Source: a virus. From it: a stretch of DNA of 10,257 bases. Made by a program: the position numbers and the translations under genes. This document shows positions 2-10,257 of this stretch, in pieces; position 1 is the first letter of the stretch; each line of letters begins with the position of its first letter. Location: the UHGV virus genome UHGV-0185894. One strand, given 5' to 3'. The notes beneath the pieces were generated by a model. The model made no database searches. It had not been told where the DNA came from and saw only the letters and a list, made by a program, of their open reading frames with translations.

Positions 2-214
2 CGCGGCGGGATAGAACGAGCGCACGAGCTGGAACACGCCGACACCGAGGCCGGTGGCATCAATACCGATGTATTCGACCCCTAGGGCCCCACCGCCGGG
101 GAGAAAGCCAGCCACGCCGACCTCGCCTGGGCGACCATGCACGCCCTGTTAAATGAGCCACTCACCGCCGGTATCAGCACCCCGCTGACATCCACCATTC
201 TGGAGTTTTACTGA
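2..214 (+). CDS. P: 3' end of the late gene upstream of portal (position of P2 gpP, terminase large/ATPase subunit); partial at window edge; contains an in-frame TAG at 83..85
   Basis: The frame ending in TGA at 212..214 overlaps the Q start ATG (214..216) by 1 nt, as in the P2 P-Q operon. The translation in this frame is protein-like (…AWATMHALLNEPLTAGISTPLTSTILEFY*) but is interrupted by TAG at 83..85. Identity as terminase is inferred from position only. Confidence 0.45.
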
Positions 215-1248
215 TGAGCAAGAAAGAAGGGAAAACACCGCAGCCAGCGGCAAAAACAATCACCGCCAGCGCCCCGAAAATGGAAGCATTCACCTTTGGC
301 GAGCCGGTGCCGGTACTCGACCGCCGTGACATTCTGGATTACGTCGAGTGCATCAGTAACGGCAGATGGTATGAGCCGCCGGTCAGCTTTACCGGTCTGG
401 CAAAAAGCCTGCGTGCTGCCGTGCATCACAGCTCACCGATTTACGTCAAACGCAATATTCTGGCCTCAACATTTATCCCGCATCCGTGGCTTTCCCAGCA
501 GGATTTCAGCCGCTTTGTGCTGGATTTTCTGGTGTTCGGTAATGCGTTTCTGGAAAAGCGTTACAGCACCACCGGTAAGGTCATCAGACTGGAAACCTCA
601 CCGGCAAAATATACCCGCCGTGGTGTGGAAGAGGATGTTTACTGGTGGGTGCCGTCCTTCAACGAGCCGACACCTTTCACGCCCGGTTCCGTGTTTCACC
701 TGCTGGAGCCGGATATTAATCAGGAGCTGTACGGCCTGCCGGAATACCTCAGCGCCCTTAACTCTGCCTGGCTGAATGAGTCGGCCACGCTGTTCCGCCG
801 CAAGTATTACGAAAACGGCGCACATGCCGGATACATCATGTACGTCACCGATGCCGTGCAGGATCGCAACGATATCGAAATGCTTCGCGAAAACATGGTG
901 AAGTCGAAAGGCCGCAACAACTTTAAAAATCTGTTTCTCTATGCCCCACAAGGGAAAGCCGACGGCATTAAAATTATCCCGCTCAGTGAAGTGGCGACGA
1001 AGGACGATTTTTTTAATATCAAAAAAGCCAGTGCCGCAGACCTGCTGGACGCCCACCGCATCCCCTTTCAGTTGATGGGCGGCAAGCCGGAGAACGTCGG
1101 GTCGCTGGGTGATATTGAGAAAGTGGCAAAGGTCTTTGTCCGCAATGAGCTTATCCCGTTACAGGACAGGATCCGAGAGATAAACGGCTGGCTCGGTCAG
1201 GAGGTCATCCGCTTTAAAAACTACTCACTGGACACTGACAACGACTGA
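214..1248 (+). CDS. Q: Phage portal (capsid portal) protein, P2 gpQ-like, 344 aa
   Basis: The supplied 344-aa translation matches the P2 Q portal protein in length and sequence as I recall it. GGAG lies 8 nt upstream of the ATG, and the gene is translationally coupled to the upstream ORF. Confidence 0.9.
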   Translation: MSKKEGKTPQPAAKTITASAPKMEAFTFGEPVPVLDRRDILDYVECISNGRWYEPPVSFTGLAKSLRAAVHHSSPIYVKRNILASTFIPHPWLSQQDFSRFVLDFLVFGNAFLEKRYSTTGKVIRLETSPAKYTRRGVEEDVYWWVPSFNEPTPFTPGSVFHLLEPDINQELYGLPEYLSALNSAWLNESATLFRRKYYENGAHAGYIMYVTDAVQDRNDIEMLRENMVKSKGRNNFKNLFLYAPQGKADGIKIIPLSEVATKDDFFNIKKASAADLLDAHRIPFQLMGGKPENVGSLGDIEKVAKVFVRNELIPLQDRIREINGWLGQEVIRFKNYSLDTDND

Positions 1249-1252
1249 ACAT

Positions 1253-1276
1253 CGCCGCCTGCGGGCGGCTTTTTTA
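1253..1276 (+). terminator. Rho-independent terminator after Q (end of the P-Q late operon)
   Basis: GCCGCC (1254..1259), loop TGCG, GGCGGC (1264..1269) form a perfect 6-bp GC stem, followed directly by TTTTTT (1270..1275), 5 nt after the Q stop codon. Confidence 0.65.
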
Positions 1277-1417
1277 CATCCCGTCATCACGCCCTCACAC
1301 GCTCACCACCGCACAAAACACCCCTTAGACACACCAACGCCCCGACGCACAATCTAAACGCCATCACGACGCGCTCAGACGCTGAAAAAATAAAATCAGC
1401 ACCACCGCCAGCGCGCA

Positions 1418-1436
1418 GTGCTTTCCCCGCCTCGCC
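1418..1436 (-). other. cos: cos site core (P2-type 19-nt cohesive end sequence)
   Basis: Plus strand GTGCTTTCCCCGCCTCGCC; its reverse complement GGCGAGGCGGGGAAAGCAC is the P2 cohesive-end sequence. It lies ~170 bp beyond the Q stop, as expected for P2. Confidence 0.8.
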
Positions 1437-1583
1437 CGCCCGCTTCATGCAGGGCTTTAAATGCAGTGCAGCAGTAATGGTTAGAATGCGCCAGCACTGA
1501 TGTTAGATACCAGAACTGGCATTTAAAAATGAATGCAAATAAATGCACCAAACTAATTACTTACTGACAAAAAATAAGTAAAA

Positions 1584-2468
1584 TCAGGCGCAAGTTGGCA
1601 TTGAGACCCCTTTCAGGGTATTAGGAATAATTATTTCAGGAGAAAAAATCATCACTTCCTCTCCAGATTTTTTGAGATGCGCTGTATATTGCAATGAATA
1701 CTCAACTTGCGGAAATTCATTATAAATATCTTTAATTTCCTTAGCGTTATCATAAGAAACAAGCCAATTTGGGAAATTAATTTCTGTGAGTTTCTTCATA
1801 ACCAATACATGGTCATCATGCTCATAAAAATTCCTGTAAAGCCCTTGCCCTTTAATATAGTAAGGAGGATCCAAATACAAAAGAATTTTATTTTTATCCA
1901 CCTTTCCCATATTATCCATAAAATTCAAAGCATCAAGAAAATCCAAAGCATCCAGATTAGTTACTACTATTCTTTGATTATAATTTGCTATCTTCTCAAT
2001 TCTTGAAATTAAATCCGCCCTGTTAAAGCGAACATCCATTTTCCATTTTCCATTTTGTGATTTCCCGCCTATAACCCCCGCCTTGAGAATACCTGAACGA
2101 TTTGTTCTATTTAAGAAAAACGCAGCAAAGCCAACCTCAAGCTTAGTAAACTCAGAAGGATTCGAAATAACATAGCGATGAAAAGACCATTCATCCATAT
2201 CTATCTTTGCTCGGCTAATAAGTCGGCAAAGCTCATCAGTATCACTAACAACAGATGACCAAAAAGAATAAACAGCAAAATCTGCATCATTTATATAGAC
2301 TTTACGGACATACTCTTCCAATAATAATTCTAAAGCCACCCCTGCACCACCAGCGTAAGGTTCTGCATATGCTCCATCATTCAACGAGTTTTTTTCAATA
2401 ACATCTTTTAAAAAGTAAGATAACTTACCTTTCCCGCCGGGGTATCTTAATGGAGTATAAAATTTCAT
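1584..2468 (-). CDS. Dam-family (D12 class, alpha-type) N6-adenine DNA methyltransferase, 294 aa
   Basis: N-terminal RYPGGKGKL (compare Dam LKWAGGK), SAM-binding motif I AEPYAGGAGV (FxGxG), and catalytic motif IV DPPY at aa 200..203 (nt 1871..1860, checked against the DNA). The motif order I-then-IV is that of Dam-like alpha-class enzymes. RBS GAGAGGG lies upstream of the ATG. Confidence 0.85.
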   Translation of the reverse strand: MKFYTPLRYPGGKGKLSYFLKDVIEKNSLNDGAYAEPYAGGAGVALELLLEEYVRKVYINDADFAVYSFWSSVVSDTDELCRLISRAKIDMDEWSFHRYVISNPSEFTKLEVGFAAFFLNRTNRSGILKAGVIGGKSQNGKWKMDVRFNRADLISRIEKIANYNQRIVVTNLDALDFLDALNFMDNMGKVDKNKILLYLDPPYYIKGQGLYRNFYEHDDHVLVMKKLTEINFPNWLVSYDNAKEIKDIYNEFPQVEYSLQYTAHLKKSGEEVMIFSPEIIIPNTLKGVSMPTCA

Positions 2469-2537
2469 AAATCCCTCTCATTCCTGATTTTGTAGTTTAT
2501 CAGTTTCTGGACATCCATGTCCAGATGTAGACAAATC

Positions 2538-4043
2538 TCACTCACTCCAAATAAGGCTTAATAACAACTCAAAGTTATCCCACTCAGTGTTGACAGCCTC
2601 TTTTGAGGGAATTAAGTGTGGGTTATGTACATACTGCTGCAATGAACCATCATGTTTAGTTATTTGGCTCGAGAAAGTTATTACAGCCGTACATTGACTC
2701 CCCGTCATCTTTTTATTTTCCCGAAGGAAATTAGCACACATTTTAACCTTATCATGAAGCCCTGGAGTTCTATGCGGTTCCTTAAATTGTAACTTGTTTT
2801 CTTCAACAAAAGTGCTTACAGAGAGATCTATAAATATTCTCAACAATATTGAGATAGCATTAGGGGTGTTATCAAATGTCAGATGCGACTTAAGCTCATT
2901 AAATATTCTAGAGCATTTCTTATGCCCTCTAAAATTAAATTTCACATAAGATGGCACCAACACATTACGATCTACTTTAGGAGGAGTTTTTCCCTTGTTT
3001 TTATTCTGTTCCGTACCCGAAACTTTAGATTTACTCTCTTCTGTGCCTACATGTCTAGAATAATCATCTTCCTGTTTATCCACACCTGTATTCTTTAAGG
3101 CATCACCTTCTGAAAGACCTACTTTCTTTACACTCACAGATGCATCATTTTTGTCAATAGAATCATGTTTTTTCTCTGTAAGAAAAGATTTAGGCTCCAG
3201 TAAACTCCACGGCTTATCTAAAAGAGAGTCTGAAGGTTTTATTTTTTGTTCAATAATAAATGTAACCCTGTCATCTTGGCTACGAATCCTATTAACAGTA
3301 AAACAAGCCTTACCTTTATCATCCTCTTCAATCATTACATCTAAAATATTTTTTAATTGTGCACAAAAACGTTCATAAGGCTGATATGAGTATAGAACTC
3401 CATTAATGCTTTTTAAATTAAAATAATCCCTCACCTTTAAATCACCAAAAAGACGCGTGATGTTTGTGATTTTTAAAAGTCTTTTTTTAGCAATTATCTC
3501 TTTATATAAATCAGTATTGAACTCTATAAATGTAAGTATTTGATTACCAAATGACTGCTTACCCATCCTAGCCAGATGTCGTGCTTTTTCTGTTGCAGTC
3601 CATTCAACTCTTCCAACTCCAGCATTTTGACCAGTATGCTTTAAATTGACCCAATGCTCATATTCATCATCGTCAAAAAGAACGCAGTTATCTATAACAT
3701 TAATATCTTTAAGCTGAGTAATCTTAAGTTTTTCAAAAGCTTTCCGTGCTTTTTCTGTTGGTGCAAGTCTAGGAGAGTGTAAAAGTTTAAGGGCTGTAAC
3801 TCGACGATTACCTTCAGCAACGACGAAAAAGCCAGATTCCTCTTCACTAGGATAAACTAATATGTTTTCAGACGGATCTAAACCTTTCGAAGCAATATCT
3901 TTAGCCAAGCGATAAATGCGGTCGTACTGCAAGTCAAGCATCTTGGCAATAGCATCACGCTGATTTTCTGCTGACGTCGGGAAACGAGGGTTATCAACAT
4001 CCAAAAGTAACTTATTGATATTCATTGATTTTAGTTGATTCAT
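2538..4043 (-). CDS. ParB/Srx-like N-terminal domain protein with low-complexity linker and uncharacterised C-terminal domain (candidate nuclease/NTP-binding effector), ~501 aa; longest ORF extends to 4112 (524 aa)
   Basis: The N-terminal region INKLLLDVDNPRF…GLDPSENILVYPSEEESGFFVVAEGNRRVTALKLL has the ParB N-terminal pattern (…NPR… then a G-x-R-R motif like ParB GERRxRA). NPR (3992..3984) and GNRR (3812..3801) were checked against the DNA. AGAGGA (4056..4051) sits 7 nt upstream of the ATG at 4043, so 4043 or 4049 is a more likely start than 4112. The C-terminal ~140 aa has no motif I recognise. Confidence 0.6.
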   Translation of the reverse strand: MNQLKSMNINKLLLDVDNPRFPTSAENQRDAIAKMLDLQYDRIYRLAKDIASKGLDPSENILVYPSEEESGFFVVAEGNRRVTALKLLHSPRLAPTEKARKAFEKLKITQLKDINVIDNCVLFDDDEYEHWVNLKHTGQNAGVGRVEWTATEKARHLARMGKQSFGNQILTFIEFNTDLYKEIIAKKRLLKITNITRLFGDLKVRDYFNLKSINGVLYSYQPYERFCAQLKNILDVMIEEDDKGKACFTVNRIRSQDDRVTFIIEQKIKPSDSLLDKPWSLLEPKSFLTEKKHDSIDKNDASVSVKKVGLSEGDALKNTGVDKQEDDYSRHVGTEESKSKVSGTEQNKNKGKTPPKVDRNVLVPSYVKFNFRGHKKCSRIFNELKSHLTFDNTPNAISILLRIFIDLSVSTFVEENKLQFKEPHRTPGLHDKVKMCANFLRENKKMTGSQCTAVITFSSQITKHDGSLQQYVHNPHLIPSKEAVNTEWDNFELLLSLIWSE

Positions 4044-4399
4044 CAACATATCCTCTGTTGAATCTTTATGATAAAAATTAATTATTTTTATCATAAATGA
4101 TAGCGTAAACATAGTATTATGAACGACATCAGCCCTGAAGCTTCAAAACTATCATTTACGTTTGCGAGGCACCATCTATCACATTGATTTATAATAAGTA
4201 TCTTTATCTTCACTGCATTGCTCTCAAAAAATCACATAGATGGAAATTCCCCGTTGACACACTCCCAAGTGATGCAGATACATTTCAAGTGCTTCATACA
4301 CATGATAACGGCTATCCCCCTAAATTCTGTGCGTTTCTTTTCCCTCCAGCACAAGGTTGAAATATCTTGCGTGCAGCTTTACTTTGTGAATCTTTGTCA

Positions 4400-6685
4400 T
4401 TATATCCGCGCCATTACTGTTGAGAATCCCGGCCACTCATCAGCGACCGGATACGTGAATTTTTTCCCGTCATAATTTACGGTCGCGCCACGCGCCAGCG
4501 CCTCAAGCTCCCATCGCTGCGGCCTGATACCGTTCTGAGCAAGGTCAACGCGGATACGGGTAATTTGCATTCTTTCCGACCGGGTCAGTCTGGCCGATGG
4601 TGCAATTTCATGTGGTTTTAACGGGCTTCCGTTTCTCTGCTGACGATTTGGTGTTCTCAGCCCGTATTTTAATGCGCCCCTGAGCGCCCTCACGACCTCC
4701 GGGTCATTCCATTCGATAACACCGTCATCAACCAGATTAAGCACTGCTGCGGCGTGCTCAGAAGGCGTGGGAGCCGGTAACGAAGTATTACCGCCGGTGA
4801 GCTTTCCACAGTTATTGACAGGACTCCGAGGCGCGGCGATGCCGCTTTTTAAAGTCAGAGGCTCAACGACCGGAACTTTCGGCACAATGCGCCAGTCCGT
4901 CGTTCTGGTGATATGAATATGACGCGCGCCGAGATGCGGCGCGTAAATGCCGACCACTCTCTCGACTTCTTCCTCGTACTCGTTAACTTCATCCGACGGA
5001 CTACGGGCGACCCTGACAGTCTGACAATCGCGCGGGACATTTGCCCCACCCTGCGCGCTGATATACAACGCAAAATCACCACTGTCTGCGGCGGCGCGTG
5101 CAGCCTCGACGCGCTCGTCAAACTCATCAGCAATGCTGACGCCGCGAGGCAATTTGCGTAGTTCACGGTAAGCCCCCATTGTCGGCAAACCAACCGTTTT
5201 AAATTGTGGGATGCGCCACGTTGACGCCCATGCGGTAACAGCCGCAGCAGTGTCTTTCAGCGGTCTGCCGGTATCGTTATCGAGCTGACCATCCAGTGCA
5301 TAGCCATCGATGTTTTTTGAGATGTATTTCGCGATATACCCCGCAGCACCGCCCTGGTTAAGGTGTTTTGCCTGAAAACGGTTTCGCGCGGCTCCTCTTT
5401 CGTCGCCATCCTCTTTGAGCGCATAGCGACGCATGATTTCGATAATCTGGTTACGCTGGCGTGGATTACAAAAAAGCATCATATGCCAGTGCGGCGTTCC
5501 GTCGTGGTGTGGCTCGACGACACGCAAACCGTAGACCTGTAAATCATTATCTTTGAATGCCGTGCGCATCAGGCTCCAGATATGGCAGAGATAACGCTGC
5601 GCATCCTTTGGATTAAATGCCTCATCGTTCCAGCCGTGATTTAGCTGGACGGTTTTACTTTCGCCTTTTCCGACCTGACGTGTCGGGTGATACTTTGAAG
5701 GCGCGGTAAGCGTGATAAACATCCCCACATCACCCTCTGCGGCGGCGTAACGCTCAATACCGGCAATGGTGTTCATCAGCTCCATCCGGCGAATTTCAGG
5801 ATTAGAAATACTGCCCATCACCTTACTGATAAGGTCGATGCGCTCGCCGGTTTCCCTGTTTTCAAGGTCACACGATTTAAGAAATTCCAGATTTGCCTGG
5901 CGGCGTGCACGCACATCACGAATGGCATGTTTACTGGCATAAGGAGAACGGTCTTTATTCACCTCCCCGACAGCAATCAGTAACGCCTCATGCCAGCGCA
6001 TACGCTGGCCTTTGAGCTGATGAGTCCACCACTCATCGTTAAACAGACGGGCAATGGCAGAATATGCCTGCCTCGTGGTCATCTGTCCTTTACGGTATTT
6101 TTTCCAGTAAAGCGGGGAAATATTGAAAGCACGTGCAGCGCCAGCAACATGACCATAGAGGTGAGCCTGCGCCTCATCCGTAAACAGCGATTCTTTTTCG
6201 CCATGTGCATCCACCCAGGCATCGCTGAGTTCCTCATACATCATGAAAAGCTGCGATGAGATACGGGCGGCAAACTTTTTCAGCTCCTTGTCATTCATTC
6301 CCGGCAGGCGCGCATAGTGGTCACGCTCTGCCAGAAACAGCAACGACGCGTCGGTGTTCATTTCATGGCGCTGATTCACACGCTCAATGCGCGGCCATAA
6401 ACGACGCTGAAAAGTGGATGTGAGGAAATAAAACCCGTGCACCGGGCTTTTATTGCGCCGGATGTAGTCATAGCGTGAAGTAAACAGCGAGCGCAAAAAG
6501 TAAGGCAGGCGGTTAATCGTGGATAAAACACCTTGCATCTGACGCATCTCGTCACGTGTAAGGGGTCTTTCGCGCCCGACGGCCTCGCGTGGCGCGTTCC
6601 ATGCATAAGCACCGGTAAACATCTTACCGGTGCCTGCGGCAAATGCTGACGGAGGGACAAAACGCCCGGAGGCTTTAACGGCCAT
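4400..6685 (-). CDS. A: Replication initiation protein / rolling-circle endonuclease, P2 gpA-like, 761 aa
   Basis: The long ORF matches P2 A in size and position (downstream of B and the small ORFs). Start set at Met15 of the listed 775-aa ORF (MAVKASGRF…, ATG at 6685..6683 checked in the DNA), which gives 761 aa, the length I recall for P2 A. Confidence 0.88.
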   Translation of the reverse strand: MAVKASGRFVPPSAFAAGTGKMFTGAYAWNAPREAVGRERPLTRDEMRQMQGVLSTINRLPYFLRSLFTSRYDYIRRNKSPVHGFYFLTSTFQRRLWPRIERVNQRHEMNTDASLLFLAERDHYARLPGMNDKELKKFAARISSQLFMMYEELSDAWVDAHGEKESLFTDEAQAHLYGHVAGAARAFNISPLYWKKYRKGQMTTRQAYSAIARLFNDEWWTHQLKGQRMRWHEALLIAVGEVNKDRSPYASKHAIRDVRARRQANLEFLKSCDLENRETGERIDLISKVMGSISNPEIRRMELMNTIAGIERYAAAEGDVGMFITLTAPSKYHPTRQVGKGESKTVQLNHGWNDEAFNPKDAQRYLCHIWSLMRTAFKDNDLQVYGLRVVEPHHDGTPHWHMMLFCNPRQRNQIIEIMRRYALKEDGDERGAARNRFQAKHLNQGGAAGYIAKYISKNIDGYALDGQLDNDTGRPLKDTAAAVTAWASTWRIPQFKTVGLPTMGAYRELRKLPRGVSIADEFDERVEAARAAADSGDFALYISAQGGANVPRDCQTVRVARSPSDEVNEYEEEVERVVGIYAPHLGARHIHITRTTDWRIVPKVPVVEPLTLKSGIAAPRSPVNNCGKLTGGNTSLPAPTPSEHAAAVLNLVDDGVIEWNDPEVVRALRGALKYGLRTPNRQQRNGSPLKPHEIAPSARLTRSERMQITRIRVDLAQNGIRPQRWELEALARGATVNYDGKKFTYPVADEWPGFSTVMARI

Positions 6686-6950
6686 ATGAGCCAAAAGCCT
6701 CTGAACAACGCTTGCTGAGTTGCTCAACCTGCACGTTTAAATCAGCAAAAGACTTTGCGCTTCCGGTCAGAATATCGTGATGCATCAGGCCTGAAACGAG
6801 CTGGCTTAATTTCGGGTAATAACCAACCACCGCCAGCCATTCCTGACCGGCGTTTTTACCGCTTTCCGCTCTCTTTTTCTCGTGGAGAATAAACTGAAAG
6901 CTGTCACTGGTAACGACATAACGTTCGCCAATTTCAATACGAATACTCAT
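6675..6950 (-). CDS. Small early-operon protein at the P2 orf83 position, 91 aa, function unknown
   Basis: Intact ORF in the same orientation as A, overlapping the A start by 11 nt and the preceding ORF by 4 nt (operon-style coupling). Assigned by position only. Confidence 0.65.
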   Translation of the reverse strand: MSIRIEIGERYVVTSDSFQFILHEKKRAESGKNAGQEWLAVVGYYPKLSQLVSGLMHHDILTGSAKSFADLNVQVEQLSKRCSEAFGSYGR

Positions 6951-7171
6951 GCCGTTCTCCGGTAATGTTTGTTTTTTGCTTCAAAGACTGACTGACAGGA
7001 AACACAACGCGTGGCTGACGGGTAAGCCGCACGACGGGCAGCAGGTATTGGCGCGTCACACTCTTCGCAAACCAGCGCAGAAGCACCGCAATGTTTTACC
7101 CTTGCCGCGTTAATCTGGCGCTCCAGTAATTCAGCCTGTTGTTCCTGAATAAAATCTACGTTGTCCGGCAT
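6947..7171 (-). CDS. TraR/DksA-type C4 zinc-finger protein at the P2 orf82 position, 74 aa
   Basis: CEEC…17 aa…CVSC four-cysteine arrangement typical of TraR/DksA C4 zinc fingers; coupled to flanking ORFs (1-nt overlap with the next ORF). Confidence 0.75.
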   Translation of the reverse strand: MPDNVDFIQEQQAELLERQINAARVKHCGASALVCEECDAPIPAARRAAYPSATRCVSCQSVFEAKNKHYRRTA

Positions 7172-7476
7172 TACCAGTTCCTTTTGTCGTTCAGTTTTTT
7201 AAATTCATCAGCGCAATAGCTGGCGATTTCTGTCGTTAATTTCGTCAGTTCATCCACGGAGGAAATTTGCTTGTGAAATACAGCGCGTTTAACAAGTAAA
7301 TTGACCACATCAGACAGGAGGTTTAATTCACTCTGATAAATCGCGATAACAGATTCAGTTATTTCGCGTTTTTCTTTATCAAGACCAAGTTGAATAAGAG
7401 ACAAATCGCCATTTTTCATAACGGCGATTTTTAAGGCGTTATTCAGTAATACAACTGAACGAGAACAGAACATCAA
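7171..7476 (-). CDS. Small early-operon protein at the P2 orf81 position, 101 aa, function unknown
   Basis: Intact ORF tightly packed between neighbours (4-nt overlap with the upstream ORF) in the conserved orientation. Confidence 0.65.
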
Positions 7477-7697
7477 AGCACCTCCCCGCGAGACAATCCG
7501 ATATTGTGAAATTTTTCCGACTCCTGACTGAGCAGCTCGACTATCTCCACGCGGGATAACTCCGCCTTTGTGATGTGGCGAATCATGGCATCAAGATGAG
7601 AAGAAAAGCGCGTCGCAGCGTCGGCCTGTGCTTCGGTTCTGGCCTGTTGCAGCAGTAATGCGTATATACCGCACTGATTTTCAGAAACTGTATGCAT
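7473..7697 (-). CDS. Small early-operon protein at the P2 orf80 position, ~74 aa, function unknown
   Basis: ORF listed as 7473..7730; a start at Met12 (ATG 7697..7695) is preferred because GGAG (7707..7704) lies ~6 nt upstream. Confidence 0.6.
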
Positions 7698-7760
7698 AAC
7701 TTTCTCCAGGCAAAAAGAAGCCCCGCACAATTAAGTGCGTTAAAAACTCTGGTTAATTAC

Positions 7761-8261
7761 TTAATGCAGATATTGCTCCGGTTTTACCGACGTCAGAATT
7801 GTCGGTGCATACTCAAACAGACTGAATAATTCACGTAATGCACGGAATAAAGCATCACGCCAGTAACATGACTCTTCATTAATTCGCCAGTATGGCTGGT
7901 TGAATTCTTTTTCAGTCAATCCGGCATGCATAAATAAAGTACGACGCTGACTGACTGTTAAAAAACTAATATATGCATACTCACTTGCGCCAACCTGACG
8001 GCGTTTTGAGAATGCACCACGCAATTCATCAATTGCACATACCAGTCGTTCACGTTCGACGTCGTTCATTTCTTCAAAACACATCGTTGCGTGACGCTGT
8101 TTTAACTGAGCATGGAAGCAAACCGTTAACCGTTCGCGCTCCATCATCTGATTATAATAATCACATGTATCCTGCCAGCGAGGAACGGCAAGATGCTTAC
8201 CAATTATCCGGCGCATAGCTGCTGGCTGTTTTTCAACGAGATTGAGCGTCATCACTGTCAT
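7761..8261 (-). CDS. B: Replication protein B, P2 gpB-like (helicase-loader function reported for P2 B), ~166 aa
   Basis: Position between the orf78-like ORF and the orf80-83 cluster, with size as in P2. Start preferred at Met3 (MTVMTLN…, ATG 8261..8259) because GGAGGG (8277..8272) is 7 nt upstream of it but only 1 nt from Met1. Confidence 0.8.
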   Translation of the reverse strand: MTVMTLNLVEKQPAAMRRIIGKHLAVPRWQDTCDYYNQMMERERLTVCFHAQLKQRHATMCFEEMNDVERERLVCAIDELRGAFSKRRQVGASEYAYISFLTVSQRRTLFMHAGLTEKEFNQPYWRINEESCYWRDALFRALRELFSLFEYAPTILTSVKPEQYLH

Positions 8262-8452
8262 TTCCATACCCTCCGGCTTTTCAGAAAGGTCAGAGCCTTT
8301 TTTAACGGACTCTGTTTTTTGGTGCGGATAATGATTCCCTTACGCCCCTTACCGTGGGTGATGGTGAAGTCAATCGCCCTGGGGCTTTCGTTACGCAGTA
8401 ACTGAGCAATACAACGAGGCTCATTCATACGGTTCTCCTTAACGTGGTTCAC
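8258..8452 (-). CDS. Small basic protein at the P2 orf78 position, 64 aa
   Basis: Intact ORF between cox and B, overlapping cox by 14 nt and B by 4 nt (using the 8261 start). Lys/Arg-rich. Assigned by position. Confidence 0.55.
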   Translation of the reverse strand: MNHVKENRMNEPRCIAQLLRNESPRAIDFTITHGKGRKGIIIRTKKQSPLKKALTFLKSRRVWK

Positions 8453-8714
8453 CGAGACCTAACCACATCAACCAGCCGTCACGAATCTCTTTAGGGCGGC
8501 TTTCATAAGCCAGTTTTAGTCCGTTATTCCATGCCGGAAGGTATACCCAATATTCACCTGCACGACCTGAAGCTGATTGTGGATCGGTCATATCAATTAC
8601 AGGCAGCTTTCCTTTATCGATCATCCGACGAACCGCTCCTGTCGATTTTCCTATTAGTTTTGCGAACTCCTGATAAGGAATCGCATCAGTCATGAGTGTT
8701 ACTTGCTTGCTCAT
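8439..8714 (-). CDS. cox: Cox protein (excisionase / Pc repressor / directionality factor), P2-like, 91 aa
   Basis: 91-aa protein MSKQVTLMTDAIPYQEFAKLIGKSTGAVRRMIDKGKLPV… matches P2 Cox as I recall it; divergent from C across the switch region. Confidence 0.9.
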   Translation of the reverse strand: MSKQVTLMTDAIPYQEFAKLIGKSTGAVRRMIDKGKLPVIDMTDPQSASGRAGEYWVYLPAWNNGLKLAYESRPKEIRDGWLMWLGLGEPR

Positions 8715-8828
8715 GTCGTCCTCTAGCCCTCATGAATTGCGTTTAATGTCTTATAATGCCTTTTAGTGCCCACATCCAAGCACTAAACAATCTACATCTA
8801 AACTAAATACTATTGAGATCTAAACACC
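8715..8828. promoter_or_regulatory. Pe/Pc divergent promoter-operator switch region with C-repressor operator direct repeats
   Basis: ATCTAAAC occurs twice as a direct repeat (8796..8803 and 8818..8825) with a 14-bp spacer (22 bp centre to centre), which matches my recollection of the P2 C operator half-sites flanking the Pe -10. There is also an inverted repeat TAGTGC…GCACTA (8764..8769 / 8780..8785). Confidence 0.55.
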
Positions 8829-9128
8829 ATGTCAAACACGATAAGCGAGAAGATAGTCTTAATGCGAAAATCAGAGTATTTGAGCAGACAACAACTTGCT
8901 GATTTAACAGGGGTTCCGTATGGCACGCTGAGTTACTATGAAAGTGGTCGTTCAACACCTCCAACAGATGTCATGATGAACATCCTGCAGACCCCACAAT
9001 TCACCAAATACACTTTATGGTTCATGACCAATCAGATCGCTCCTGAGTCCGGGCAAATTGCGCCCGCTCTCGCACACTTTGGGCAAAACGAAACAACGTC
9101 GCCCCACTCCGGTCAAAAGACTGGTTAA
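8829..9128 (+). CDS. C: Immunity repressor C, P2-like, 99 aa
   Basis: 99-aa protein MSNTISEKIVLMRKSEYLSRQQLADLTGVPYGTLSYYESGRSTP… contains a helix-turn-helix-like segment and has the size and position of P2 C, divergent from cox. Confidence 0.9.
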   Translation: MSNTISEKIVLMRKSEYLSRQQLADLTGVPYGTLSYYESGRSTPPTDVMMNILQTPQFTKYTLWFMTNQIAPESGQIAPALAHFGQNETTSPHSGQKTG

Positions 9129-9243
9129 CAATTCATCGTGAATATATTCATCACAAGTGCCTACTATTGGTGGCTAAATTTCAGCCACCACGAAAAAAGC
9201 GATTAGTAGTCGCAAAAAAACACACCACTCGGAGGGTTTTCTG

Positions 9244-10257
9244 ATGGCAATCAAAAAACTCGATGATGGTCGATATGAAGTGGACATCCGCCCTACTGGA
9301 CGTAATGGAAAACGCATCCGTAGGAAGTTTGATAAGAAAAGCGAAGCTGTCGCTTTCGAGAAATACACGTTGTACAACCACCACAATAAAGAATGGCTAT
9401 CAAAACCAACAGACAAGCGACGTCTGTCGGAGCTGACACAGATCTGGTGGGATTTAAAGGGTAAACACGAAGAGCATGGGAAATCTAATCTTGGAAAAAT
9501 TGAAATCTTCACAAAAATAACGAATGACCCATGCGCATTTCAAATTACGAAATCGCTTATCAGCCAGTACTGCGCCACCCGAAGAAGTCAGGGTATTAAA
9601 CCTTCGAGTATCAATCGTGATTTAACATGTATTAGCGGCATGTTTACAGCCCTGATTGAAGCGGAGTTATTCTTTGGTGAGCACCCTATCAGAGGGACAA
9701 AAAGGCTTAAGGAGGAAAAACCAGAAACAGGCTATCTAACACAGGAAGAAATTGCCTTACTGCTTGCAGCACTTGACGGCGACAATAAAAAGATTGCGAT
9801 TCTTTGCCTGAGTACAGGAGCACGTTGGGGAGAAGCAGCTCGTTTGAAAGCAGAAAATATCATCCATAACCGCGTCACGTTTGTTAAAACGAAAACAAAC
9901 AAACCACGCACCGTCCCGATCTCAGAGGCTGTTGCCAAAATGATCGCGGATAACAAACGAGGTTTTTTATTCCCTGATGCTGATTACCCTCGCTTCAGAC
10001 GAACAATGAAAGCAATAAAACCGGATTTGCCAATGGGGCAAGCCACACATGCACTAAGGCACAGCTTTGCCACTCATTTCATGATTAATGGAGGAAGTAT
10101 TATCACGCTACAACGGATACTAGGTCACACGCGGATTGAGCAAACTATGGTTTACGCTCATTTTGCGCCAGAGTACCTTCAGGACGCCATTTCTCTTAAT
10201 CCGCTAAGAGGTGGTACTGAGGCCGAGAGTGTCCACACAGTGTCCACAGTAGAGTAA
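9244..10257 (+). CDS. int: Tyrosine integrase, P2 Int-like, 337 aa
   Basis: Size and position downstream of C; C-terminal catalytic region contains HxLRHSFATH and the Y of MVYAHF (R-H-R-Y tyrosine recombinase signature); GGAGGG RBS at 9231..9236; stop codon TAA is the last 3 nt of the window. Confidence 0.9.
   Translation: MAIKKLDDGRYEVDIRPTGRNGKRIRRKFDKKSEAVAFEKYTLYNHHNKEWLSKPTDKRRLSELTQIWWDLKGKHEEHGKSNLGKIEIFTKITNDPCAFQITKSLISQYCATRRSQGIKPSSINRDLTCISGMFTALIEAELFFGEHPIRGTKRLKEEKPETGYLTQEEIALLLAALDGDNKKIAILCLSTGARWGEAARLKAENIIHNRVTFVKTKTNKPRTVPISEAVAKMIADNKRGFLFPDADYPRFRRTMKAIKPDLPMGQATHALRHSFATHFMINGGSIITLQRILGHTRIEQTMVYAHFAPEYLQDAISLNPLRGGTEAESVHTVSTVE

Follow-up and report, generated by a model that had tools for sequence, protein, structure and literature searches.

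The AT-rich block of the window (the whole 10,257-nt stretch of DNA that was analysed) can be identified with high confidence as the two-gene anti-phage system PD-λ-5, carried as cargo in a P2 accessory locus, delivered by recombination between phages, and AT-rich as a long-maintained property. The present analysis establishes what the block is, where it lies and where it ends, together with its mosaic structure and composition. The finding confirms published knowledge, as both the P2 accessory locus and the PD-λ-5 system were already known.

PD-λ-5 was described by Vassallo et al. 2022 (PMC9519451) as a “ParB/HEPN, methyltransferase” system of 2461 bp from ECOR7, in which the two genes together were defined and validated as the system. 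The gene pair in the window spans 2460 bp, and both products match the corresponding PADLOC profiles end to end, the 501-aa protein with PD-Lambda-5_A (E=7e-168) and the 294-aa methyltransferase with PD-Lambda-5_B (PDLC04018, E=1e-121). Gene content, gene order and the P2-like prophage setting are those of the ECOR7 system, from which the cassette shows essentially no difference. Among complete E. coli genomes, strain A7, an orangutan isolate, gives the best match to the whole window (99.3%), and no match is exact. ECOR7 is likewise an orangutan isolate. In the ECOR7-like strain A7 the cassette differs from the window at 12 positions within 1500-4300, and the flanking Q by 3-4%. The evidence for anti-phage activity comes from the literature on the ECOR7 system, which acted on ten tested phages with a single exception, with the strongest protection against T-even phages, which are resistant to most classical restriction-modification (R-M) systems (PMC9519451). 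Its authors termed it a “compacted prophage version of an RM+Abi system”, and on one reading of the coordinates the 272 bp that they cloned upstream of the system's gene A correspond to 4044-4318 here (PMC9519451).

Table 1. Features of the window, with positions counted from its first letter.
Feature	Position	Strand	Evidence or remark
Gene Q (portal protein), P2 backbone	214..1248	+	Pfam Phage_portal, E=5e-14
tQ, terminator of the P-Q operon	1252..1269	+	GC-rich hairpin, then T-run
Terminator-like hairpin	1399..1414	-	Consensus scan only; in conserved backbone sequence
Exchange module	1409..4756	.	Near-identical in lysogens with backbones 2-4% divergent
cos, 19-nt cohesive-end sequence	1418..1436	.	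Reverse complement of GGCGAGGCGGGGAAAGCAC, read from the letters
Conserved cos-flanking backbone, left limit of P2-like homology	1437..1474	.	Alignments
Variable AT-rich cargo, P2 hotspot 1 (moron position 1 / tin-old locus)	1475..4318	.	G+C 0.35
PD-λ-5_B, D12-class N6-adenine DNA methyltransferase, 294 aa	1584..2468	-	PADLOC, Pfam
Perfect palindrome TGGACA-N4-TGTCCA	2508..2523	.	In the 69-nt intergenic spacer
PD-λ-5_A, ParB/Srx-HEPN protein, 501 aa	2538..4043	-	PADLOC profile, fold search
Cassette upstream region with promoter-like site	4044..4318	-	Consensus scan
orf91 (DUF3850) remnant, right limit of P2 homology	4320..4400	-	Alignment, translation compared with P2 Orf91
Gene A (replication endonuclease)	4400..6685	-	Pfam Phage_GPA, 2e-124

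The elements follow each other in the order Q, cos, cargo, orf91′ and A, with flanks that are 97-100% identical to P2. The locus between gene A/orf91 and cos/Q is the cos-proximal variable locus of P2-like phages (hotspot 1, or tin-old), which has been described as a defence hotspot (PMC9122126, PMC9519451) and as “moron position 1” by Wiles et al. 2013 (PMC3573123). The gpQ of the window shares 98.5% amino acid identity with P2 gpQ (about 97% at the nucleotide level), tQ has its counterpart in the annotated P2 terminator at 160-181, and the cos sequence is identical to P2 cosR in the alignment; the end of phage records deposited as linear genomes falls exactly at window position 1436. The hairpin next to cos is a putative stop for leftward transcripts past cos. 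The first 100 bases of the window resemble an assembly artefact, and an Rfam scan of the whole window returned no RNA family.

Homology to P2 and other peduoviruses stops at 1449-1474 on the left, where the backbone boundary lies at 1468-1475, and at 4319 on the right, inside a frameshifted and truncated orf91. The orf91 remnant (81 bp) comprises 26 codons followed by a frameshift and a stop, and RefSeq annotates this stretch as a frameshifted, incomplete DUF3850 pseudogene. An extension of the remnant to about 4232 in a shifted frame was rejected, as the similarity past KKRxEFR is too weak. Between these limits, two intact open reading frames occupy 84% of the cargo (1475-4318), for which no homology to the cargo of P2, 720R8 or 12474III was found. 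The P2 tin-old locus itself occupies the same slot, has the same G+C (tin 0.33, old 0.35) and, like the cargo here, is dispensable, acts against phages and varies among phages that are nearly identical elsewhere. It differs from the window in that its proteins are unrelated, in that orf91 is truncated only in the window, and in the direction of transcription: P2 old and tin are read from a cos-side promoter toward A, whereas the genes of the window are read from the A side toward cos.

The methyltransferase also matches PADLOC MTase_II (3e-103) and Pfam MethyltransfD12 (1e-16), and its translation shows the motifs DPPY and AGGAG. Against the Dam equivalog TIGR00571 it scores 47.3 bits, below the cutoff of 114.85; it belongs to the D12 class but is not a Dam orthologue. 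It lies downstream of the ParB/HEPN gene on the same strand, and the palindrome in the spacer shares positions with a promoter-like site that precedes the methyltransferase gene, the two together covering 2494-2523. This palindrome is kept in orthologues of at least 74% identity, with a symmetric variant in Edaphovirga; a hairpin or operator between the two genes was found in a subset of loci only and is not family-wide. A second promoter-like site was located by consensus scan upstream of the whole cassette (-35 at 4109, -10 ending at 4081), in a region (4044-4318) of which the proximal 60 bp or so alone are conserved among orthologues.

On a rival reading the two genes do not form one self/non-self system. 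The methyltransferase could instead be an orphan or an anti-restriction enzyme, shielding P2 DNA against the R-M systems of the host, next to a ParB/HEPN protein acting independently as an Abi toxin or regulator. Orphan Dam-like methyltransferases are common in phages, and PADLOC also gives the methyltransferase weaker “orphan methyltransferase” matches; the promoter-like site and palindrome in front of the gene suggest its own control, and HEPN domains are characteristic components of Abi and toxin modules. This reading is nevertheless judged unlikely, though it keeps some weight. The methyltransferase gene lies directly downstream of the ParB/HEPN gene in 79 of 80 homologous loci (on the same strand in 78 of the 80), and these include Proteobacteria, Bacillota, Bacteroidota and even Micrarchaeota. 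Such constant adjacency in a fixed order across phyla suggests that the two genes are functionally coupled, and it was as a two-gene unit that PD-λ-5 was defined and validated. The cloning of PD-λ-5 needed an mrr-deleted host (PMC9519451), and the methyltransferase is therefore active; this requirement does not discriminate between coupled and separate genes.

The composition of the window changes sharply at both ends of the block. G+C is 0.556 for 1-1436, 0.354 for 1437-4399 and 0.482 for 4400-10257, with 300-bp windows of 0.30-0.39 inside the block and 0.50-0.61 in Q and A. A maximum-likelihood fit with two change points places the breaks at 1455 and 4405, improves on a single composition by 106 nats, and departs from the limits given in the initial annotation by at most 18 bp and 6 bp, respectively. 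The comparatively defined cargo (1468-4318) has a G+C of 0.351, and the remainder of the window one of 0.496 (chi-square 175, p=7e-40). At third codon positions, GC3 is 0.29 in the methyltransferase gene and 0.28 in the ParB/HEPN gene compared with 0.66 in Q (overall G+C 0.53) and 0.55 in A; the share of codons ending in A or T is 71-72% in the cargo genes, compared with 34% in Q and 45% in A. The sharp discontinuity and the A/T-dominated third positions that the initial annotation had seen by eye are thus borne out by the sliding-window and codon-usage calculations that it had proposed, in which the profile drops strongly over the cargo instead of staying flat. Its description of the backbone as GC-balanced does not hold throughout, given the early region (6728-10257), which reaches only 0.448 overall and as little as 0.40 in 300-bp windows; the G+C balance of the P2-type backbone is not uniform across the window. 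Likewise, the boundary that it had set at the stop codon of A (4400-4402) is where the compositional break at 4405 falls, but P2 homology runs on to 4319, inside orf91.

The block is accessory cargo that is horizontally exchanged within a conserved P2 backbone, as had also been proposed. Different cargo occupies the same site between flanks of 96-99% identity in P2 (tin/old), 720R8, 12474III, pro147, STYP1 and a cdt-carrying phage, and comparison with P2 shows tin, old and most of orf91 to be replaced between the two boundaries. Of 5426 complete E. coli genomes, 22 contain the cassette itself at an identity of at least 99% (99.4-99.8%), in backbones that are 2-4% apart, and the window differs from each of five independent genomes at 7-17 positions over about 2.8 kb. 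Mismatch profiles delimit the near-identical block at 1409-4756 in the lysogens A7, LR-24 and IAL7250, at 1354-4756 in NCTC9008 and at 1349-4515 in KL53. Relative to P2, the window shows about 100% identity over roughly 4850-10257, whereas it diverges by 8% in 4319-4793 (39 mismatches) and by about 3% in Q. A crossover is visible within gene A at about 4757-4988, and the last 355-400 bp or so of gene A (4400-4793) move together with the cassette.

Beyond E. coli, orthologous cassettes occupy the gpA-Q slot of P2-like prophages in Enterobacter, Serratia and Iodobacter and on metagenomic contigs; in Cronobacter the slot contains a degraded remnant. For Enterobacter and for one metagenomic phage, the nucleotide alignment with the window is unbroken from Q through cos into both cargo genes, at 76%. 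Among 50,697 phage records searched by tblastn no close orthologue was found, the best full-length match being 27%, and no deposited phage genome carries the cassette.

The low G+C had been taken as a sign of recent acquisition from a low-GC donor. Of this claim, horizontal exchange stands, and it is the recency and the low-GC donor organism that low G+C does not support. A recent and direct transfer whose composition is still un-ameliorated would fit a block with G+C of 0.35 and GC3 of 0.28 beside 0.50-0.56 in Q and A; the identity of the cassette among the 22 E. coli genomes fits a recent spread within that species, and the P2-type flanks are 97-100% identical to those of a phage with other cargo. 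Such a transfer is nonetheless improbable. The orthologues in the gpA-Q slot, at 60-77% amino acid identity, have an equally low cargo GC3 (0.29-0.32) beside a backbone GC3 of 0.57-0.75, and the alignment of the Enterobacter and metagenomic phages continues from Q through the cargo. In 66 of 70 loci, spread over many phyla, the homologous gene pair has a lower G+C than the DNA around it, with a mean difference of 9.5 points, and hosts of 55-77% GC are among them. The other accessory loci of P2 share the composition, as tin/old, orf30 and fun(Z) of P2 itself have a G+C of 0.33-0.35. In addition, as the crossover lies inside gene A, the proximate donor must have had a P2-like gene A.

In the P2-like prophage orthologues, cargo GC3 stays within 0.24-0.33, and divergence of the cargo (60-77% amino acid identity) tracks that of the backbone (A 57-76%, Q 62-83%), a comparison based on five to six loci that could also reflect repeated exchange inside host-restricted phage pools. 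Low G+C is a long-standing, maintained trait of the cassette and of P2 accessory loci and not a timestamp of acquisition, and the cassette most probably came directly from another P2-like phage. A parallel exists in neaT, at moron position 2 of a P2-like prophage of CFT073, which is also a very AT-rich accessory gene whose homologues are AT-rich compared with their host genomes and have been described as “maintained in an un-ameliorated state” (PMC3573123); it differs in locus (G to FI) and in function (acyltransferase).

The ParB/HEPN protein, PD-λ-5_A, consists of a ParB/Srx domain, a helical middle domain, a disordered linker (residues 291-354) and a C-terminal HEPN-fold domain, and full-length homologues of both cargo proteins occur across phyla. 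Fold search independently recovers the ParB/Srx and HEPN folds. The ParB/Srx domain has KorB as its top structural match, followed by sulfiredoxin, PadC and pNOB8 ParB-N, and contains a box-II-like GxRRxxA motif (G78-N79-R80-R81-V-T-A84) in which, together with E77, residues G78 to R81 are invariant in 36 homologues of 30-78% identity. The C-terminal domain has the four-helix HEPN fold with invariant His473 and Asn474 in a conserved motif [Q/H]-x-Y-V-H-N. The canonical HEPN motif Rx4-6H is absent, as none of the 36 homologues supports a conserved arginine 4-6 residues before His473 (residues 467-469 are L, Q and Q), and the missing arginine makes RNase activity of this domain uncertain. Neither the whole protein nor its separate domains gave anything meaningful in Pfam and NCBIfam scans at E<=10, and a profile search of PDB sequences gave chance matches alone (E>0.05). 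No PD-(D/E)XK, HNH, GIY-YIG, PLD or other classical restriction nuclease fold was detected by Pfam, NCBIfam or fold search.

The ParB/Srx fold with its KorB match and GxRRxxA motif could also denote plasmid-type partition, carried as cargo for prophage maintenance, and Rousset et al. 2022 (PMC9122126) report putative partition systems from roughly one in four P2-like hotspots. This is very improbable: the cargo has no gene for ParA or another ATPase, a methyltransferase is the sole partner here and the partner in 79 of 80 loci, the C-terminal part adopts a HEPN fold in place of the ParB dimerisation domain, neither Pfam ParBc nor any partition family is matched at sequence level, and the homologous system gave phage resistance experimentally (PMC9519451). 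There is hardly any room for the view that the block has no function and is in decay, for instance as pseudogenes or as an artefact of assembly, with a composition due to relaxed selection, to which the frameshifted neighbour orf91 and the artefact-like first 100 bases could point, given two long intact reading frames over 84% of 1475-4318 with full-length homologues across phyla, 7-17 differences from each of five genomes over about 2.8 kb, invariant motif residues that are kept, and natural copies in which no premature stops or frameshifts were seen.

The mosaic structure indicates that PD-λ-5 was installed by homologous recombination between related P2-like phages, as a module of about 3.3 kb, from cos to the last 355 bp or so of gene A, in place of tin, old and the 3′ three-quarters of the orf91 of P2. 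In the proposed mode of action, transcription of the two genes probably starts at a promoter of their own and runs toward cos, in the same direction as that of A. The methyltransferase may mark the DNA of the lysogen and prophage with N6-methyladenine, and the ParB/Srx-HEPN protein would be the effector, its ParB-like NTP-binding and helical middle domains engaging unmarked incoming DNA. Execution could be through nicking by the ParB/Srx domain, through the HEPN-fold domain, or both, and the whole would resemble restriction-modification in compact form, possibly with an arm for abortive infection. A plain logic of cutting unmethylated DNA may fail here, given that protection is best against T-even phages. 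Searches of the literature turned up neither a biochemical mechanism for PD-λ-5 nor a mechanistic study of the system.

Comparison with known systems gives partial parallels. Classical Type II R-M systems similarly pair an adjacent, co-oriented N6-adenine methyltransferase with a second phage-resistance protein, but PD-λ-5 has no recognisable restriction-endonuclease fold, is active on T-even phages and was not classed as R-M by its authors. Type IV enzymes of the GmrSD/BrxU type combine an N-terminal nucleotide-binding domain of the ParB/Srx superfamily (DUF262 NTPase) with a C-terminal effector in a defence context; here the effector is of HEPN fold and not HNH/DUF1524, no sequence-level similarity was detected, and the constant methyltransferase partner suggests that modified DNA is spared and not attacked. 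A tentative extension, which we hold to be possible but rather less than even, is that PD-λ-5 represents a distinct modification-dependent immunity, in which a ParB/Srx switch and a non-canonical HEPN domain replace the endonuclease, and that its AT bias is at the same time selectively maintained, possibly for expression from a repressed prophage or through xenogeneic silencing. Both points are general to PD-λ-5, and no published work that settles ParB/Srx-HEPN immunity or a maintained AT bias was found.

For the scanning of genomes, these findings carry a caution: a sharp drop in G+C within a prophage marks accessory cargo, but it neither dates the acquisition nor names a low-GC donor. They also refine the boundaries at this locus, where the variable DNA covers 1475-4318 and the moving unit extends over about 1409-4756 and contains both cos and the 3′ part of gene A. 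The cassette has long been tied to the gpA-Q slot of P2-like phages in Enterobacterales and beyond, and this association bears on how the cargo of such hotspots is shuffled by homologous recombination between phages.

An AT-rich block at 1437-4399 in a GC-balanced P2 backbone was read in the initial annotation as a recent acquisition from a low-GC donor. The compositional drop and its coordinates are correct, with sliding-window G+C, codon usage and change-point analysis in agreement: G+C is 0.50-0.61 over 1-1500, 0.30-0.39 from about 1500 to 4350 and 0.50-0.58 over gene A, segment values are 0.556 (1-1436), 0.354 (1437-4399) and 0.482 (4400-10257), and a two-change-point likelihood fit places the breaks at 1455 and 4405, 106 nats better than a uniform model. 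GC3 is 0.28-0.29 in both cargo genes versus 0.66 in Q and 0.55 in A, and codons ending in A or T make up 71-72% of the cargo genes, 34% of Q and 45% of A. The backbone is indeed GC-balanced over Q and A (0.50-0.61), but not in the early region right of A, where G+C is just 0.45 overall with local minima near 0.40. Equivalent compositional islands are found in P2 itself (orf30 0.34, fun(Z) 0.33, tin 0.33, old 0.35; genome 0.50).

The window is a segment of a P2-like prophage, reversed relative to the P2 map. Homology to P2 and other peduoviruses ends on the left at 1449-1474, 13-38 bp past the cohesive end, and homology to P2 and the P2-like phage 12474III restarts on the right at 4319, within orf91, so that the variable DNA is 1475-4318. 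For phage 720R8, which is without orf91, right-side homology restarts at 4423, within the last codons of A. Relative to P2, the genes tin and old, the promoter region of both and the 3' three-quarters of orf91 have been replaced. The A stop codon, initially taken as the right boundary, thus matches the compositional break (4405) but not the limit of P2 homology. That match arises only from the AT-richness of the orf91 remnant; in P2 the G+C of orf91 is 0.445.

Features of the prophage segment and its cargo
Feature	Position	Strand	Remarks
Q (portal)	214-1248	plus	
tQ terminator	1252-1269		
Cohesive-end sequence	1418-1436		19 nt; linear-genome phage records terminate exactly at 1436
D12-class N6-adenine DNA methyltransferase	1584-2468	minus	294 aa; Pfam MethyltransfD12 1e-16
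ParB/HEPN protein	2538-4043	minus	501 aa; PADLOC PD-Lambda-5_A 7e-168
orf91 (DUF3850) remnant	4320-4400		26 codons, frameshifted; pseudogene per RefSeq in sister genomes
Gene A	4400-6685	minus	
Early genes, then C and int	right of A		

Just past cos on the Q side lies a terminator-like hairpin with a T-rich tail (1399-1414, minus strand; consensus match only), a candidate that would be placed to halt leftward transcripts of the cassette or early operon before antisense entry into Q. The cos-proximal sequence (1460-1549) is unrelated to that of P2, 720R8 and 12474III except for short islands common to all (TGCA at 1462-1465, ATGCA at 1533-1537 and 1543-1547), which may be part of the packaging signal. 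Window Q is intact (344 aa); it is annotated as frameshifted in the cassette-bearing prophages of the E. coli lysogens A7 and IAL7250 (loci L096 414-1447 and L001 1781-2814). Positions 1-79 reproduce, in inverted orientation, a gene-P stretch that in intact prophages is found some 180 nt farther upstream; they show 100% identity to L001 1410-1488, reverse-complemented, and to P2 1514-1592. The next 21 nt (80-100) are unrelated, and normal P/Q sequence runs from 101 on, so that positions 1-100 look like a contig-end or assembly artefact.

The block is filled by two intact genes and is almost certainly the PD-λ-5 cassette; the pair reproduces the "ParB/HEPN, methyltransferase" annotation of Vassallo et al. 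(PMC9519451). PD-λ-5 was cloned from ECOR7 contig QOWS01000001, 264599-267059, a stretch of 2461 bp (PMC9519451), and the window pair measures 2460 bp. Among complete genomes the best whole-window match is A7, an orangutan isolate (99.3%); ECOR7 likewise came from an orangutan. The cassette is present at 99.4-99.8% identity in 22 of 5426 complete E. coli genomes, 2257 of which carry some P2-like backbone. The gpA-Q interval of P2-like phages is a defence hotspot (Rousset et al., PMC9122126), known as "moron position 1" (Wiles et al., PMC3573123), and hosts four of the new systems of Vassallo et al. (PMC9519451). Both the defence cassette and the phage hotspot that holds it had been described before.

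In other P2-like phages, namely comparison locus L005 (2023-5059), Wphi (gp98), L-413C and 12474II-V, this hotspot holds different proteins with a ParB N-terminal domain (26-30% identity over 160-300 aa), accompanied in 12474III by a different DNA methyltransferase; ParB/Srx-domain proteins thus seem to recur in the slot. At least nine "complete" E. coli chromosome records (e.g. NZ_CP095856.1, NZ_CM130729.1) open precisely with gene A of this prophage and hold the cassette at positions 2287-5249; presumably start-fixing software took the phage replication gene for the replicon start gene.

The ParB/HEPN protein starts at Met24 of a mechanical ORF 23 codons longer, as the profile, all homologues, a conserved GAGG ribosome-binding site and RefSeq concur. 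Pfam and NCBIfam scans gave no match for it. In an AlphaFold model (36 homologues, pLDDT 77) the middle region is helical, and residues 291-354 form a disordered linker of low complexity. Retained in the ParB domain are the box-II pattern GxRRxxA (G78-N79-R80-R81-V-T-A84; E77-R81 invariant) and the invariant motifs NPRF, W..LKHTGxNxGxG and TNxxRLxxD, which argue for a functional nucleotide- and DNA-binding module. R402, Y471, H473 and N474 are invariant in the HEPN-fold domain, whose catalytic competence is uncertain because no arginine lies 4-6 residues ahead of the histidine.

The methyltransferase has DPPY and AGGAG motifs and matches the PADLOC profiles PD-Lambda-5_B (1e-121) and MTase_II (3e-103); it does not score as a Dam equivalog. 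The 69-nt spacer between the genes (2469-2537) contains a perfect palindrome, TGGACA-N4-TGTCCA (2508-2523), overlapping a promoter-like site (TGGACA, 18 nt, TG-TAAACT). It is kept in orthologues of at least 74% identity, with a symmetric variant (AGACA-AGGA-TGTCT) in Edaphovirga; some distant loci instead have 9-11-bp hairpins directly behind the stop codon of the effector gene, and neither element occurs in many others. The palindrome may be an operator or attenuator for methyltransferase expression.

PD-λ-5 affected plating of all but one of ten phages tested, most strongly T-even phages, its cloning needed an mrr-deleted host, and its authors read it as combining R-M and Abi in compact form (PMC9519451). 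Literature searches returned no mechanistic follow-up. In a working model that we consider possible but slightly short of probable, the methyltransferase would mark self DNA, and the ParB/Srx-HEPN protein would sense and attack unmarked invading nucleic acid. Among 80 loci with ParB/HEPN homologues, drawn from one-genome-per-species collections, the methyltransferase gene directly follows in 79 and lies on the same strand in 78, and paired loci range over Proteobacteria, Bacillota, Bacteroidota and Micrarchaeota; a toxin/self-marker dependency would predict pairing as strict as this. The cassette genes run toward cos, co-directional with A, whereas P2 old and tin run the opposite way. The cassette genes probably have a promoter of their own, with a promoter-like site at 4109-4081; of the sequence upstream of the cassette, just the proximal ~60 bp show conservation among orthologues.

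From about 4850 to 10257 (5.4 kb: most of A, orf83-80, B, cox, C and int) the window is essentially identical to both reference P2 and the A7 prophage, while the Q side is ~3% divergent from both, which makes the prophage a mosaic; 39 mismatches to P2 fall in 4319-4793. Compared with five natural lysogens carrying the cassette, a near-identical block starts at 1409 (or about 1350) and ends at 4756 (or 4515), with flanks 2-4% different. The moving unit is therefore ~3.3 kb and takes in cos, the cassette and the orf91 remnant together with the last ~355 bp of A. P2-like genomes swap it by homologous recombination, and the crossovers fall at two or more different points on each side. The proposed import holds insofar as the cassette has been exchanged horizontally, and recently on the time scale of the E. 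coli P2 backbone, but it most probably came directly from another P2-like phage.

In 66 of the 70 loci that could be assessed, the G+C of the gene pair is below that of DNA lying over 3 kb away (mean difference 9.5 points), and this holds in hosts whose flanks have 55-77% G+C too. Other P2-like prophages hold orthologues, 60-77% identical, at this gpA-[ParB/HEPN][methyltransferase]-Q position; two more lie outside it, one in an integrase island of Salmonella and one in a lambdoid prophage of Morganella.

Orthologues in or beside the gpA-Q slot, with amino acid identity to the window
Locus	Source	Setting	A	Q	ParB/HEPN
L086, L090	metagenomic contig; Enterobacter asburiae	gpA-Q slot	75-76%	80%	74-77%
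L091	Cronobacter	degraded remnant in slot			
L092	second metagenomic contig	gpA-Q slot	57%	65%	64%
L093	Serratia fonticola	gpA-Q slot	60%	78%	60%
L008	Iodobacter	adjoining P2-type portal gene	no hit	62%	45%

In these prophages the divergence of the cargo follows that of the backbone, and for L086 and L090 one 76% nucleotide alignment spans Q, cos and both cargo genes; GC3 stays at 0.24-0.33 in the cargo and 0.57-0.75 in the backbone. The compositional discontinuity is thus old and maintained, and these results argue against taking the low G+C as evidence of recent import from a low-GC donor. The main value of the analysis lies in the exact boundaries, in the mosaic evidence for phage-to-phage exchange of the cassette, and in showing that AT-richness is no clock of acquisition here.
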